Of a stretch of 6,014 nucleotides of DNA, positions 443 through 5,654 are shown piece by piece (positions within the stretch are counted from its first letter, which is position 1; every line of letters begins with the position of its first letter). Source of the DNA: a virus (Duplodnaviria; Heunggongvirae; Uroviricota; Caudoviricetes); the IMG/VR virus record IMGVR_UViG_2651869781_000009, one strand, 5' to 3'. The translations under genes and the position numbers were made by a program. The notes beneath the pieces were generated by a model, which ran no database searches, was not told where the DNA came from, and saw only the letters and a program-made list of their open reading frames with translations.

Positions 443-910
443 TTACGGTATACACTGGGTACGGATATATTCCTGTGCTCCTTCCAGTTGCTTCTGCATT
501 GCTATCAGCCGTTCTCTGAGGATGAAATAATCCCGTTCAGCGGCTTCTGCCAGTCGGGGACCGGTTGCATTATCCACGCCGGAGGTGATGGGGGCTTTAC
601 GCAAGGAGCCTGGACAGTTGGCGTTGATGCGCAGGCGCTTACGACCAGCGGCAACATCAGCACGCAGAGTTTCATTTTCAGCTCTCGCATCGGCTAATTC
701 CCTCGAGTATCTGGCATCAAGTGCAGCGACATCACGCTGGCGTACCTGCATATCAGTAATTGTCACGTTCGCCAGCTTCAGCTCACTGGCTTTTTTATCG
801 CGTTGCGCTTTGTAGGTAATGGCGTTATCGAGGTAATGATTCAGCCCCAGACTAAGCACACCACAGGCTACCAGCAGGACAATAATCACCACACACAGAA
901 CACGGTTCAT
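443..910 (-). CDS. Rz: Rz-family i-spanin (inner-membrane spanin subunit)
   Basis: 155 aa; N-terminal TM segment ([16 protein letters not shown]), then motifs recalled from lambda Rz ([46 protein letters not shown]); ATG at 908-910 preceded by GAGGGGG; last gene of a holin-endolysin-spanin cassette. Confidence 0.9.
505..690 (-). CDS. Rz1: Rz1-family o-spanin lipoprotein, wholly embedded in Rz in the +1 frame
   Basis: 61 aa; signal peptide with lipobox (LVVSAC), proline-rich mature part ([30 protein letters not shown]) resembling lambda Rz1 from memory; ATG 688-690 preceded by GAGGGA about 8 nt upstream. Confidence 0.85.
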
Positions 911-1399: not shown

Positions 1400-1933
1400 T
1401 TATCTGTCAATTCCCCAGCACGCCAGTGCACTTTCCTGGTCTCGCCGGGATACCTGACCGTAGCAATTATTTGAGCGGATACGGCAGTCTCTGCCACCGT
1501 CCTTAATCCACCAGCGAATCGCTTCGCAGGCACCTTTTCGATCACCTGCATTAATCCGTCTGTAAAACGTAGACGGGAAACACTTACCGGGGCCAATGTT
1601 ATAAGGACAAAATGACGCGATACCCGCCTTCTGGGGTTCGGTCAGCGGTACTTTAATATTGCGCTCCACCCACTCCAGCGCCTTATCACGTTCAATGGCG
1701 TTAACCTGGTCGCACTTTTCCTTCGATAACTTCATACCCGGGACGACAGGCTTACCATCCACTCGGGTGGCACCGCGGCAGATGGTCCAGATCCCCGCAC
1801 CATCACGGTATGCCGTGGTGTGGTTACCTTCTTTTTCGTCAAGAAACTGGTCGAGGATTTCAGGCGCAGACGTCCCTGCACCAATCAGCGCCAGAACGGC
1901 AGCCGACAGGCCGTATCTGATTTTTGCGTTCAT
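1400..1933 (-). CDS. R: SAR endolysin (T4-lysozyme-like muramidase, GH24) with N-terminal signal-anchor-release domain
   Basis: 177 aa; Gly/Ala-rich weakly hydrophobic N-terminus (YGLSAAVLALIGAGTSAP) typical of SAR domains; catalytic triad spacing E-x8-D-x5-T (EGNHTTAYRDGAGIWT) as in T4 lysozyme and phage 21 R; resembles Qin-prophage lysozyme from memory. No SD-like sequence upstream of ATG 1931-1933. Confidence 0.9.
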   Translation of the reverse strand: MNAKIRYGLSAAVLALIGAGTSAPEILDQFLDEKEGNHTTAYRDGAGIWTICRGATRVDGKPVVPGMKLSKEKCDQVNAIERDKALEWVERNIKVPLTEPQKAGIASFCPYNIGPGKCFPSTFYRRINAGDRKGACEAIRWWIKDGGRDCRIRSNNCYGQVSRRDQESALACWGIDR

Positions 1934-2058
1934 GGATATTTATCAGGATTTATCGGTTCCGGCCCCCTGGATATGTTAAGTCTTCAGCCCGCCGGTGGTG
2001 GGCACTGGCGTAAACCCAACAATGTGAGATGGCTGCCTCGCAAAGATAATGAACAGAT

Positions 2059-2322
2059 ATGAATGAAGAAAATACAGCGCTTTTTGACAGAATTTTCACT
2101 CTTGAGTTACAGGTCGGTTTTCTTCTCCCAAAGATAATCAAAGCCATGGATGCACTTGGTAAGAATAACGCTGTGTCAGATTACCTGATCGCCGAAATGG
2201 AACATCTCATTAAAGAAATACCAAAGACCGATGCTCGTGATGATAAAAGATTCCTCAGGGCTGCTGAAAATGCTCTTTCGACCGTGAAGCGCAGCTTAGA
2301 CGCGCCGCAAGATCAAGAATAG
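2059..2322 (+). CDS. hypothetical 87-aa acidic, predicted helical protein on the opposite strand to the lysis cassette (candidate moron)
   Basis: Only long open frame in an AT-rich segment visibly lower in GC than the flanking lysis genes, where stop codons are frequent; ATG 2059-2061, TAG 2320-2322; no clear SD; GATAAT at 2045-2050 could be a -10 giving a near-leaderless transcript. Converges on the 148-aa gene with a 15-bp gap. Confidence 0.4.
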   Translation: MNEENTALFDRIFTLELQVGFLLPKIIKAMDALGKNNAVSDYLIAEMEHLIKEIPKTDARDDKRFLRAAENALSTVKRSLDAPQDQE

Positions 2323-2337
2323 TTTCTTTCATTTCGT

Positions 2338-2784
2338 CTAATGCAAGTACCTCATCTTTTGTTGGGGTGCTTTTTTCAATTCAGAGATATAGCACTCCAG
2401 TTGTTCAATACGTGATTCAATATCATCTTTTTCTGACCGCAATGCCGTCGGTGGCGTCTTCAGAGAACCAGTAATTCTTCCCGGTAGCTTTCCTCTGTAG
2501 GTTATCAACACGTCCTGCGCCTCTAAAATGATGGGCCGCTTTTCCGGCAACGGACCATCCCCTTCACATAACCCGGCAGCAACATCCATGAAAAACTGCT
2601 TCGCCTGCTTTTTCGCCTCAGCTTCGTAAAACTCCAGCGTGGCTCCTTCAGTACGGTCAAGACTAATCGCCACATCTGGCAACAACAGTGACGGATACCC
2701 ACCAATTTCCGGTGCCACAGTAACAGTAATCTTATCCGGGTAATTATTTATCCCTTTAACAACCAGTTCGTATTTTTTCTTCAT
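2338..2784 (-). CDS. hypothetical 148-aa protein translationally coupled to the holin; possibly YdfR/DUF1327-like (family name from memory, unverified)
   Basis: ATG 2782-2784 lies 4 nt after the holin stop, with SD GGGGAGAG inside the holin 3' end; soluble protein with a C-terminal coiled-coil-like segment (DDIESRIEQLECYISELKK); sits between holin and endolysin, as ydfR does in Qin. Confidence 0.7.
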   Translation of the reverse strand: MKKKYELVVKGINNYPDKITVTVAPEIGGYPSLLLPDVAISLDRTEGATLEFYEAEAKKQAKQFFMDVAAGLCEGDGPLPEKRPIILEAQDVLITYRGKLPGRITGSLKTPPTALRSEKDDIESRIEQLECYISELKKAPQQKMRYLH

Positions 2785-2788
2785 CGCT

Positions 2789-3004
2789 TTACTCTCCCCG
2801 CGCCGCCTTACGACGGTCCTCTCTGATTTTGAAATACAGGTTAGTCAGATACGTCAGCAGGCCAAACAGCAGACTCCCCAGCACACCTATCGCCACCCAC
2901 TGGGACGGAGAGACTTTGTCCAGCAGCTGCAGTAACCAGTATCCCGTCCCCACCGCTGACGTGGTGTATGACACACCCGTTGTGATTTTTTCCATCTGGT
3001 ACAT
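2789..3004 (-). CDS. S: class II pinholin (phage 21 S-like) with dual-start motif
   Basis: 71 aa; MYQMEK... gives Met1 and Met4 starts; two TMDs (TMD1 Gly/Ala-rich SAR-like, TMD2 [23 protein letters not shown]); C-terminus [15 protein letters not shown] matches recalled S21 (YFKIKEDKRKAARGE); SD GGGAGA 6 nt upstream of Met1. Confidence 0.9.
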
Positions 3005-3079
3005 ACCCCGTCTCCCGCAATCCGGAAGCTCACAACAACAGGAGGGGCATCAGCTCACACCGACAGCCCCTGCGTATGG

Positions 3080-3349
3080 TTACATCATCATTTCGCCGCC
3101 AGGCTGAGGCTCACTGCTACCGTCAGGCTGAGACACAACGCCATCTGAAACAGCACTGTCACCCGCGCCGTCTTCAGGCTCAGGAGCAGCCGGTCCCCCC
3201 AGCAGCTCATCCAGAATGGCATCCACTTCAGCATCAAGACGCGCCTCAAGATTCTGGCGGAGTTGCTGTTTCAGTGCGCTTCTGACTTCTTCAGAGCGCA
3301 GGACGTCCTTCACTGCTTCAGCAGTGACCAGAGATTTTATTTCTGACAT
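3080..3349 (-). CDS. hypothetical 89-aa acidic protein with low-complexity C-terminus
   Basis: Internal ATG 3347-3349 of track ORF 3080..3505 (the long form starts at GTG and overlaps the upstream small ORF); weak SD (GAGAAAA); TAA at 3080-3082; product MSEIKSLVTAEAVKDVL...EPQPGGEMMM. Confidence 0.4.
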   Translation of the reverse strand: MSEIKSLVTAEAVKDVLRSEEVRSALKQQLRQNLEARLDAEVDAILDELLGGPAAPEPEDGAGDSAVSDGVVSQPDGSSEPQPGGEMMM

Positions 3350-3386
3350 AGGATTTTCTCGTTGAAAGGTGTTGTTAAGAAAGTTG

Positions 3387-3569
3387 CTACGAAATGAGAG
3401 GCTCTTCGGGTTTTGTTCCGGCTGACTGGCTGGCGCTGATTTTTTCCGCCGCCGCGGCATCAATCTTTTTGCGTATATAGTTCCGGATAACCTTATACCC
3501 GCCACTTACCAGATATAACGTGCACACCACCGTGCAGAAATACAATAAAATAAGCTGTACAAATCTCAT
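3387..3569 (-). CDS. hypothetical 60-aa small membrane protein (N-terminal TM helix, charged C-terminus)
   Basis: ATG 3567-3569 preceded by a strong SD (GGGAGGG, about 4-5 nt spacing); TAG at 3387-3389; product MRFVQLILLYFCTVVCTLYLVSGGYK... Confidence 0.5.
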   Translation of the reverse strand: MRFVQLILLYFCTVVCTLYLVSGGYKVIRNYIRKKIDAAAAEKISASQSAGTKPEEPLIS

Positions 3570-3663
3570 TATCCCTCCCGGTTATTGATATGGTGTTGAC
3601 ATCGTTAATACCTGTTGGTTAAAAAAGTGTCCTGCATGTTTTGCTTTGGATATAACGACATTT

Positions 3664-3711
3664 GCCGCCGGTTCTGGCTCCTTGTTTTCCCTGCCCCGGC
3701 GGCCTTTTTTT
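3664..3711 (+). terminator. GC-stem hairpin plus T7 tract (terminator-like on + strand; the same hairpin is a 3' stem-loop on the nanS-p mRNA)
   Basis: 8-bp all-GC stem GCCGCCGG (3664-3671) / CCGGCGGC (3696-3703) with a large 24-nt loop, followed by C + TTTTTTT (3705-3711); on the minus strand it is preceded by A7 and not followed by U's. Confidence 0.35.
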
Positions 3712-3716
3712 CCTGC

Positions 3717-5654
3717 TTACGGGTTATTCACTTCCACTGTTATACTTTCAATCAGCACCGGATATGTCGCACCGCTAGTGATATCGGTCACGCGCAATTT
3801 GTCTGCCGTAAACGTGCCGACCGGTGACTGTGACAGCATGAACGGCGTCCCGTCCTTACCATCAATGACCGGCGTCACCTCAATACTGTTGTTACCGGCA
3901 AAACGGAAGCCCAGCGTATGCCATTCGTTATCAAATGCGCCGAATGACCCCAGCTTCGTGTTCTGACCAGCATTTCCCTTGTGGTACATCACATTAAGGT
4001 CTGTGGCATCGCTCTGTACGTAAAACGACGCCAGCAGGTTATGACCGGCATTACCTTCCAGTGTGACGCCCTGAGGCAGTGAAGAAACCGGCCAGTACAG
4101 CGCCAGTGCGTACTGATTAGCTGTCAGTGTGCCATCAACTTTAAAACGACAACTGATAAGCCCGCCCTTCTCCAGCAGGTCTGCGCCATTACCGACATCA
4201 TGCTGCATAAACCACGAGGAACTTCCTGTCTGTTTGGTCCACCTCAGCGCCTTACCTCCTGCAGCACCTGCATCATCAACTACCAATGCACGCCCTCCTT
4301 CAGCTCCCCATCCCTGCGGATTCAGTAAACCACCTGACTCTGTTGCACGGTAATAAAGCAGCGTTGTCACTGATTTCCCGTCCGTTGACGGTGTTGATGG
4401 TGTGTCCGGTGACGGCTTCTCATCCGGCGGCATCACAACCTGTTCCCCACCCACCAGTTCAGCCGTCCGTCCTGCATGGAGAAGAATCGCTGAGGCAAGA
4501 CGGTCAGAAATAATCCCCCTGCGTGCCCATGAGCTGAAATGGCTCGCACGGTCTGCTGACGTCCAGTTTGCCGACGTCCGGGAGGCCGCACCGTAATATC
4601 CTGATGCCGGAATATCCGGGTCTTCTTCCGGTTTGTTCGTCGGGACATTTGCTCCGTTCTCATCGGTCATGAACGGCACAAAGTGAATATTCTTTTCCGT
4701 TTTGTTTTTGTAACTGCCGTACACCGTCTGGTAAGTGGATTCGCTCTTCTGCTTCCAGAAATAAGTTGTGTCTCCACATATCCAGGGAACACCGTCAGCA
4801 GAACCACCAGCGCACTGTCCCACCATATCTGCAAGGTCCGTACGATATTGTTCCACTACTTCTGTAAAACGGGCTGTGTGATTTGCTGGCGTTCCGTCAA
4901 AGTCAAATTCCCCCTGCATCCACACCACGGCAAGCAGCACATTTTTCGGGTTCTTTGCCAGCGCGGCTTTTGTACGACCGATGAGATCCTTATACAGCGG
5001 CCTGCCCACACCCCAGCGGGTAGAACTCTCTGAGGCACCGGTCACGTCACTGTATGTTCCATCTGCCCCGGTGGTGAAAGCTGAACCACCACGGCAGCAC
5101 GGAACCAGAAGAATACCCGCATTCGCCGGTATAAACGGCAGCAGCTTTTTGGCAATATGCAGCCCCTGCCCCACGGTTCCGTACTGACCTTTCGACAGGT
5201 CAGCTTTCGGATGGTTAAGACGGCTCATGTCCTGTACATCATGCAGACAGTGGTCTGCCGGAATAATGTCGTTATATTTACAGGGAGCGCCATCCGGCGT
5301 CACTGTGCTGCGACGAGCCAGTTGCTTTATACGCGGGTCAGGACGGTCATATGTCTGCGGCAGAGGAAGCCCCTCACCGTAAGCCATGCCGTTCGACTGC
5401 CCGGCCAGTGGAATAACGTAGTAATAATCTGGCTCCGTGGTGACCACTCCCGGATAGCCACCATCCCCCGTGCCGGGCACAACCACTGGCGTGGTCACAT
5501 CCCCCTCCGCGGCAATCGCCTGCATCAGGGTATAAGGGGTTATGGCCACAGGACTACCAAACGGCTGCCAGCCCTCTTTCAGTTTGTGTGTCAGCTTTTC
5601 CGCAAGATCTGACGGCGACGCCGCCCTGACAACATCATAATGTTTAATCGACAT
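3717..5654 (-). CDS. nanS-p: prophage-encoded sialate O-acetylesterase, NanS-p-like (SGNH/SASA esterase)
   Basis: 645 aa; GQSN SGNH-hydrolase block I motif (IPLAGQSNGMAYGEG); length and position (after late promoter, before S) match NanS-p/yjhS homologues of O157 lambdoid prophages as recalled; ATG 5652-5654 preceded by GGGAGA at 6 nt. Confidence 0.85.
   Translation of the reverse strand: MSIKHYDVVRAASPSDLAEKLTHKLKEGWQPFGSPVAITPYTLMQAIAAEGDVTTPVVVPGTGDGGYPGVVTTEPDYYYVIPLAGQSNGMAYGEGLPLPQTYDRPDPRIKQLARRSTVTPDGAPCKYNDIIPADHCLHDVQDMSRLNHPKADLSKGQYGTVGQGLHIAKKLLPFIPANAGILLVPCCRGGSAFTTGADGTYSDVTGASESSTRWGVGRPLYKDLIGRTKAALAKNPKNVLLAVVWMQGEFDFDGTPANHTARFTEVVEQYRTDLADMVGQCAGGSADGVPWICGDTTYFWKQKSESTYQTVYGSYKNKTEKNIHFVPFMTDENGANVPTNKPEEDPDIPASGYYGAASRTSANWTSADRASHFSSWARRGIISDRLASAILLHAGRTAELVGGEQVVMPPDEKPSPDTPSTPSTDGKSVTTLLYYRATESGGLLNPQGWGAEGGRALVVDDAGAAGGKALRWTKQTGSSSWFMQHDVGNGADLLEKGGLISCRFKVDGTLTANQYALALYWPVSSLPQGVTLEGNAGHNLLASFYVQSDATDLNVMYHKGNAGQNTKLGSFGAFDNEWHTLGFRFAGNNSIEVTPVIDGKDGTPFMLSQSPVGTFTADKLRVTDITSGATYPVLIESITVEVNNP

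Follow-up and report, generated by a model that had tools for sequence, protein, structure and literature searches.

A frameshift-shortened DUF1327/YdfR gene in the lysis region of a lambdoid prophage and a candidate mobile cassette around it

A holin-coupled ORF in the late region

The window, a stretch of 6,014 nucleotides from IMG/VR record IMGVR_UViG_2651869781_000009, holds the late region of a Stx-phage-like lambdoid prophage, with its genes read on the minus strand. Between the holin and the endolysin lie a 148-aa ORF, which is the subject of this study, and a smaller ORF that runs toward it on the opposite strand. The principal features are as follows.

5654 to 3717, minus strand: SASA/DUF6645 sialate esterase
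3505 to 3080, minus strand: DUF826 ORF
2789..3004, minus strand: S21-type class II holin (pinholin family), 71 aa; Pfam Phage_holin_2_1 (P21 holin S family), 1e-32; phrog_9876 and phrog_20
2785..2799, minus strand: coupling junction GGGGAGAG-TAA-AGCG, immediately 5' of the DUF1327 ATG
2338..2784, minus strand: DUF1327/YdfR-family ORF, 148 aa, a frameshift-truncated allele of a 176-aa class
2345..2376, plus strand: terminator-like hairpin and T-run 3' of the 87-aa ORF, overlapping the frameshift site
2059..2322, plus strand: convergent 87-aa cargo ORF; phrog_18136, 9.5e-55; hypothetical protein in PGAP
1942..2058, plus strand: structured leader of the convergent ORF; nhmmer match 1926-2036, E 1e-18
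1400..1933, minus strand: R21-type SAR endolysin, 177 aa; Pfam Phage_lysozyme, 1.9e-25
443..910, minus strand: Rz i-spanin; Pfam Phage_lysis, 1.7e-46; from the ORF list
505-690, minus strand: Rz1 ORF embedded in Rz; from the ORF list

The queried part of the window, 1934-3004, is 100% identical to E. coli DCE7 record NZ_CP090612.1. This 420-kb record is labelled 'plasmid pDCE7-1' and contains late genes of a lambdoid prophage (terminase, Q, lysis genes); possible explanations are a phage-plasmid, a prophage integrated in a megaplasmid, or a mis-assigned replicon. A recent preprint (10.64898/2026.05.13.724894) describes two Hfq-bound sRNAs, PasA and PasC, in the interval that separates the holin from the sialic acid esterase in such prophages, and DUF826 and DUF1378 ORFs are annotated at the place where it puts them (3005-3716 in the window). 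Downstream, two small minus-strand ORFs between R and Rz (918-1049 and 1062-1244) are both hypothetical proteins in PGAP. The one of 43 aa (MSDKLITLAKILCVIVGISFSLMLVAICF...) is strongly hydrophobic and may encode a small membrane protein within the lysis cassette.

The 148-aa ORF starts with the ATG at 2784-2782, directly behind the holin ORF. Its minus-strand sequence across the junction is CGGGGAGAG TAA AGCG ATG, leaving a 4-nt gap between the holin stop and the DUF1327 start, and a GGAG-type Shine-Dalgarno (SD) sequence, GGAGAG, sits in the last holin codons ahead of that start. The 4-nt junction is kept in all eight related E. coli-type loci, including homologues whose tblastn identity is as low as 41-56%. 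An earlier, sequence-only reading had described the same ORF boundaries, the same gap and an SD within the holin 3' end, and had taken the start to be coupled to the holin stop; the junction sequence and its conservation agree with each of these points. That reading had also named DUF1327 and suggested an HMM search, which indeed returns DUF1327 at 152.7 bits against a cutoff of 25 (E 3.2e-45), with residues 1-112 spanning positions 1-92 of the 93 in the Pfam profile. The ORF further matches PHROG 2091 (1.7e-79), as well as PHROG 1085 and 406, all three being unannotated as to function. Taken together, the Pfam score, the PHROG 2091 match and a core dN/dS of 0.2-0.47 argue that this is not a chance ORF.

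None of the familiar lysis proteins is represented by this ORF. It contains no transmembrane segment, the top Kyte-Doolittle 19-residue mean being 0.89 versus 1.83 for the holin, and neither Pfam nor PHROG gives a holin-family match. Muralytic domains (lysozyme, amidase, transglycosylase, peptidase) are absent in Pfam, PHROG and NCBIfam searches, the NCBIfam scan giving no match of any kind, and the transmembrane segment and lipobox of spanins are both missing. Its earlier description as neither holin, endolysin nor spanin is therefore sound, as is the remark that ydfR occupies the same slot in Qin, at least for Qin-type prophages (PhiR42_1; PMC13232886). The ORF is a genuine but frameshift-shortened member of the DUF1327/YdfR family.

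Conserved core and variable C-terminus

The coding region can be divided into the following segments, of which only the first is shared by the whole family.

2569..2784, minus strand: core domain, aa 1-72 (β5-14, β18-27, β38-43, α50-74), the sole segment conserved family-wide
2449..2568, minus strand: linker or second segment, aa 73-112, in E. coli lysis-cassette forms only; pLDDT 31-43
2371..2448, minus strand: helix, aa 113-138; homologous helix at the N-terminus of a separate module of 186-213 aa
2371..2376, minus strand: A6 homopolymer, the frameshift site; A7 in relatives
2338..2370, minus strand: out-of-frame tail APQQKMRYLH and stop codon; identical tail in P0004
2255..2371, minus strand: remnant of the original frame (-1 frame), STPTKDEV...HFQQP and stop; 176-aa class P0007 and P0013

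AlphaFold2, run on the core alignment (A3), predicts a β-β-β-α fold with a pLDDT of 89.3 and a pTM of 0.77; Y53 and E54 are invariant in that alignment. The structure prediction that the sequence-only reading had recommended thus succeeds for the core, while the full-length model is poor beyond residue 73, with a helix at 121-138 predicted at low confidence. The same reading had seen a coiled-coil-like C-terminus; there is indeed a helix in that place, but it is the first helix of a second module, cut off by the frameshift. Searches for a structural or functional relative return little. A PDB sequence search with the 148-aa protein and the core profile gives no match, Foldseek of the full-length model against PDB reaches a best E of only 0.05, to designed or NTF2-like sheets, and the best E among BFVD viral structures is 0.04, with all matches uncharacterised. 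PADLOC models of anti-phage defence give a best E of 0.03 for DUF1327 and no match for the second module. The predicted core bears a resemblance to the dsRBD (α-β-β-β-α), in that a long helix comes after a three-stranded antiparallel sheet and begins with A-K-K-x-A-K, which recalls the dsRBD KKxAK motif. It differs from the dsRBD in lacking helix α1 and has no Pfam dsrm match, so the likeness is a resemblance only.

A word-indexed search yields 260 clusters of 86 to 256 aa, from Escherichia or Shigella wherever a source is named, and an exhaustive profile search of 1.84 billion representatives finds just 97 DUF1327 proteins. As far as these searches reach, DUF1327/YdfR is a narrow family of enterobacterial prophages. 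Its distant homologues, 72-76 aa long, align over the first 72 residues alone; two of them lead back by tblastn to cultured E. coli phages, and the homology is confirmed. Lengths across the family vary from 72 to 330 aa, and all of this variation is C-terminal to the 72-aa domain. To illustrate, the segment of aa 73-112 is missing from K-12-type YdfR, from phage Evi and from the forms in tail operons. We propose that the N-terminal 72-aa β-β-β-α domain is the functional unit.

Long DUF1327 proteins carry a C-terminal extension that has homologues elsewhere. In two IMG/VR contigs (L049, 1829-2470, and L050, 1910-2470), a standalone ORF of 186-213 aa homologous to this extension stands immediately after the holin, followed in order by a 75-aa DUF1327 gene of the distant type, a convergent partner, and R. 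In Stx2_95, this module is fused to DUF1327 for a total of 329 aa. Its occurrence both alone and fused identifies the 'extension' as an independent gene that is sometimes fused. A different kind of lengthening is seen in P0001 (207 aa, NCBI), an internal tandem duplication in which residues 13-106 are repeated in frame. At the other extreme, natural short forms of 113-116 aa and of 72 aa occur in plaque-forming or inducible phages (BP-4795, YYZ-2008, Evi). The 114-aa allele of the BP-4795 type resembles a deletion between short repeats, CGGTGG/GTCTTCAG (window 1980-1999 versus 2447-2463), an event that would have taken the DUF1327 tail, the cargo ORF and half of the leader.

DNA alignment of the window with Stx2_95 (329 aa), PhiR5_1 (211 aa) and three E. 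coli chromosomes (L005, L006, L007) shows a run of six A residues at 2371-2376 (T6 on the plus strand) where all five relatives have seven. With A6 in place of A7, residues 139-148 are out of frame, and the -1 frame reads on from 2371 to 2255 as STPTKDEVLALDEMKETILDLAARLSCASRSKEHFQQP and a stop, 38 codons homologous to the 176-aa class. By this comparison the native C-terminus is absent, and the window allele is truncated by a 1-nt deletion in the A-run. PGAP labels the identical gene in NZ_CP090612.1 'YdfR family protein, incomplete, missing C-terminus' and calls it a pseudogene. The exact 148-aa product is nevertheless present on 69 contigs, which makes it a genuine allele rather than an isolated sequencing error, and P0004 carries the same out-of-frame tail in a 93%-identical background.

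A decaying pseudogene, with a 148-aa product that is unstable or irrelevant, would account for the frameshift and the PGAP call, for the weakening of the SD of the partner ORF as well (AAGGA to AATGA), and for the frequency with which prophages of this kind are defective. We nevertheless find this doubtful, because the core and all of aa 1-138 are intact, the core dN/dS stays below 0.5, the allele recurs on other contigs as described, and the naturally short forms belong to phages that form plaques or can be induced. Since the core domain is intact, its activity is probably retained in the window allele, as in the 114-aa forms of inducible Stx phages.

The A6 run could also permit -1 ribosomal or transcriptional slippage, giving both 148-aa and 175-aa products from a shift site AAA AAA G that leads into the open -1 frame, 38 codons long and homologous to the 176-aa class. 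This is extremely improbable: the heptamer G AAA AAA falls outside the canonical X XXY YYZ register, a stimulatory structure was not found, efficient transcriptional slippage needs a run longer than A6, and most relatives simply have A7. Programmed frameshifting was rejected on the grounds of the register and the A7 relatives. The T-run at the frameshift doubles as the U-tract of the terminator-like hairpin for the 87-aa ORF (2345-2376, plus strand), so changes in run length hit DUF1327 and the 87-aa ORF together.

The S/R slot, the convergent partner and its leader

A conserved gene in this slot had been put forward in the sequence-only reading as a candidate fourth lysis component. The comparison with other phages does not support it: the slot holds R in 933W, presence of the gene is optional, and homologues are found elsewhere. 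In the case of 933W, which has no DUF1327, S occupies 3831-4046 and the endolysin R begins at 4051, at the same junction (GGGGAGAG TAA NNNN ATG), to which it is coupled via GGGGAGAG TAA GCTG ATG. Use of the identical 4-nt junction by R implies that the coupling is a property of the slot, not of DUF1327. The family is encoded by 101 phage records, as against 361 that match the S-to-R region, or about a quarter of similar cassettes; it is neither present in all cassettes of the type nor confined to lysis cassettes. Every E. coli-type copy examined has an S21-type holin before it and an R21-type 177-aa endolysin after it. Distant homologues occur in lambda-like tail operons and elsewhere: between the tape-measure gene and gpM (L017), between gpM and gpL (L018, L020), immediately 5' of gpL (L013), after gpI at the I/J junction (L012, L019, L021, L022, L016), after Rz (L015, L038), and after large unidentified ORFs of 760-796 aa (L045, L051). 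That the domain is kept while moving between lysis and tail operons makes a dedicated lysis factor unlikely.

These observations bear on a lysis regulator, the form that the sequence-only reading had given as an example of this idea, in which the protein, made stoichiometrically with the pinholin, modulates pinholin triggering or SAR-endolysin release in the manner of an antiholin or an endolysin chaperone. Such a role would fit the invariant coupled junction and the fixed neighbours of all E. coli copies, and an indirect change in lysis timing is possible where insertion strips R of its SD. It fits poorly with a protein that has no transmembrane or signal sequence, that is absent from 933W and from most similar cassettes, that has homologues in tail operons and after Rz, and whose C-terminus is freely shortened or lengthened. 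We rate it as quite unlikely, and the DUF1327 ORF is probably not a fourth lysis protein. The endolysin gene itself is affected by the arrangement. In the window, R is displaced from the holin-coupled slot, and no SD-like sequence lies upstream of its ATG at 1933 (..GATAAATCCTGATAAATATCC-ATG; 1934-1975, minus strand). R of the window thus lacks an SD where R of 933W is coupled to S, and insertion should therefore lower or change R translation. This loss of the coupled start and SD in insert-bearing cassettes may alter lysis timing in Stx-type prophages.

The second gene of the insert, the convergent 87-aa ORF, is also under selection. Exact copies of its protein occur on 570 contigs, its dN/dS is 0.16 against L006, and the cargo or partner ORFs in general are under purifying selection (dN/dS 0.09-0.16). 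An hhalign comparison with the phrog_10490 partner family gives a probability of 74.5% and an E of 2.7e-5, with the N-termini in register, and a remote homology of the 87-aa ORF to that family is probable on this evidence. Cargo proteins of Evi (Evi_98/L017_99) and of L018 (L018_70) were considered as further phrog_10490 relatives and rejected, there being no detectable relation. At least five families, without detectable mutual sequence similarity, can be distinguished among the cargo ORFs. PADLOC finds no match for any of the four partner proteins scanned.

A small ORF that converges on DUF1327 within 4-28 nt is present in most non-E. coli loci and in loci of the window type, the short E. 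coli forms being the exception. Approached from the partner side, with the phrog_10490 family, DUF1327 lies convergent directly behind the partner in 21 of 23 loci; the other two, from Serratia bockelmannii (L054) and L068, have the partner alone, adjoining gpI. At these two loci (2350-2830 in L068), the leader and a phrog_10490-type cargo without DUF1327 are convergent with gpI and have an ordinary terminator hairpin, which indicates that the cargo unit can exist alone. Conversely, DUF1327 stands without the partner in BP-4795, Qin and mEp460, and since each gene occurs alone, neither depends obligately on the other. A toxin-antitoxin reading was rejected because the genes are convergent, have no toxin or antitoxin domains, and are each found alone.

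Lambdoid morons such as bor and lom are extra genes that lie between conserved late genes and have their own promoter and terminator. The DUF1327 insert shares with them presence or absence at a precise gene junction, occurrence at many late-operon junctions, and flanking hairpin terminators; 933W bor is, like the cassette cargo, a reverse-oriented gene. Insertion is precise between genes that are adjacent elsewhere, such as S and R in 933W, and at least six different junctions are used. Hairpins bracket the insert, one at the DUF1327 stop and another upstream of the partner leader. The 76-aa group ends in a conserved ...EAA, which is explained by the GC-rich hairpin frequently present across the DUF1327 stop codon. 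Four terminator-like sites were found versus 1.2±1.5 expected, which is weak evidence for the hairpin at 2345..2376 in the window. Unlike the lambdoid morons, this is a two-gene convergent unit in which DUF1327 would rely on late-operon transcription in place of a promoter of its own, and its cargo gene has a conserved structured 5' leader common to unrelated cargo ORFs. A sigma-70 consensus scan found no site before DUF1327 or before the cargo gene. We suggest that DUF1327 is the late-operon-sense half of a mobile insert made up of DUF1327, the stop-codon hairpin and the convergent cargo ORF with its leader. In E. coli lambdoid prophages the insert would have landed exactly at the S/R junction, and DUF1327 would there have acquired the holin-coupled start that serves R in 933W.

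The leader, about 130 nt upstream of the cargo ORFs, is conserved whichever ORF follows, and nhmmer finds this element in 66 of the 76 sources searched. Its parts are a palindrome (CTGATCAAATATCAG), a TATGTT-like hexamer, an invariant TCAGCC able to pair with a downstream GGCTGA, a hairpin with compensated sequence change, GAGG...CCTC around the GGCTGA, and an AAGGA SD. The hexamer, TATGTT or TATGGT, is seen in alignment A10 to be conserved about 10 nt before TCAGCC. The parts located in the window are the following.

1972, plus strand: TATGTT, a -10-like hexamer
1984-1989, plus strand: TCAGCC, pairing with GGCTG at 2031-2035
1990-1997 with 2003-2010, plus strand: leader hairpin P1

The window leader has the long-range helix and the hairpin intact, together with a degenerate GAGG/CCTC part and the altered SD noted above. 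Counting of pairs across the alignment supports the structure. Paired cells amount to 94.4%, as opposed to 87.6% in shuffles, and pairs changed on both sides number 9 versus 2.6, with 0 of 500 shuffles reaching the observed value in either case; when the partners are slid, just 28-46% of cells pair. Covariation is seen in six of the eight pairs of the hairpin. The G·U pairs are compatible with the cargo-sense strand alone, an indication that the element is an RNA. At the gathering threshold, Rfam has no family on the leader in the window or in seven loci. A permissive Rfam search of four leader-bearing loci gives chance-level matches only (E 0.38-0.62); two of these, both on the opposite strand, overlap the leader region. 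In phage Evi (L010), an STnc100 sRNA match (119.9 bits) and three tRNA genes lie upstream of the holin (1641-1827 and 622-862). Five exact sequence motifs of the leader have no match in the literature searched. We regard the leader as a candidate new cis-regulatory RNA, and both it and the cassette appear to be previously undescribed.

RNase E, RNA and a possible function

Functional data for the family come from K-12 YdfR alone in the literature searched, where 'DUF1327' has a single mention. A BACTH screen baited with RNase G recovered residues 1-72 of K-12 YdfR, a fragment that binds the N-terminal half of RNase E more strongly (PMC13232886; RNA Biol 2026). According to the same report, an interaction of full-length YdfR with Rne1-597 is seen, Rne1-598 co-purifies with it, nucleic acid resistant to DNase is present in the eluate, and overexpression alters few transcripts and is not toxic; its authors could not exclude a contaminating RNA binder. 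They cite Paradis-Bleau 2014 for an envelope phenotype of ydfR. The gene is absent from the main text of Paradis-Bleau 2014, so this phenotype carries no weight here; a Keio insertion between essQ and rrrQ could also be polar.

Qin YdfR (P76160; PF07041, DUF1327) is the nearest of the characterised proteins to the window ORF. The two belong to the same Pfam family, share the β-β-β-α core, and occupy the same slot, that of YdfR being between an essQ-type S holin and an rrrQ-type R endolysin. They differ in that the cores are about 45% identical in the core alignment, that YdfR has 103 aa with an unrelated C-terminal helix, that the window form has the extra segments of aa 73-138 and a frameshifted end, and that the convergent ORF and the leader have been lost from the Qin-type locus. 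A second likeness is to RapZ, which falls with YdfR in a BACTH group that contacts only those Rne constructs containing the catalytic domain (PMC13232886). YdfR also co-purifies with Rne1-598 and brings down RNA in that report. YdfR and RapZ have no relation in sequence or fold.

The RNase-interacting fragment, residues 1-72, coincides with the conserved core, and this favours an accessory protein that binds RNA or RNase E. We hold with moderate confidence that the DUF1327 ORF is an accessory late-operon gene of the moron type, encoding a small cytoplasmic RNA/RNase E-binding protein; for the window allele itself, such binding and any phenotype are inferred from K-12 YdfR. The soluble, cytoplasmic product would be made with the holin late in lytic growth, and would most likely act on host RNA metabolism via the catalytic N-terminal half of RNase E, RNA, or both.

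A more specific role would have DUF1327 act on the cargo gene, either as a RapZ-like adaptor delivering the leader to RNase E or as a protein antagonist, so that a cargo expressed in the lysogen would be shut off upon late transcription. The close pairing of the two genes (21 of 23 loci), a structured leader conserved across at least five sequence-unrelated cargo families, and the YdfR data (binding to the RNase E N-terminal half in the assay class of RapZ, with RNA pulled down; PMC13232886) are all in keeping with this idea. Against it, Qin and mEp460 have DUF1327 without leader or cargo, cargo and leader are also found without DUF1327, and K-12 YdfR pulled down RNA in a strain with no known leader in cis. 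We consider a partner-directed action of this kind unlikely. A similarly low probability attaches to the fuller proposal that DUF1327, the stop-codon hairpin, the leader RNA and the swappable cargo form one mobile regulatory cassette in which DUF1327 recognises the leader; there, DUF1327, as a late-made binder of RNA and of the RNase E N-terminal domain, would pass cargo mRNA expressed in the lysogen on to RNase E, or would shield it. Were this true, the cassette would amount to a RapZ-like adaptor carried by the phage, switching accessory genes between lysogenic and lytic expression.

The ORF on its own is ordinary, a damaged member of a DUF family already catalogued; it is the cassette and the leader that are worth keeping. 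The cassette recurs in E. coli, Citrobacter and Serratia as well as on IMG/VR prophage contigs, where the 72-aa domain travels with a convergent small gene, the cargo coding sequence is swapped under a constant 5' leader, and the pair inserts at many late-operon junctions. This context, in conjunction with the YdfR report, provides a testable hypothesis for a protein family that has been without a function for 20 years.
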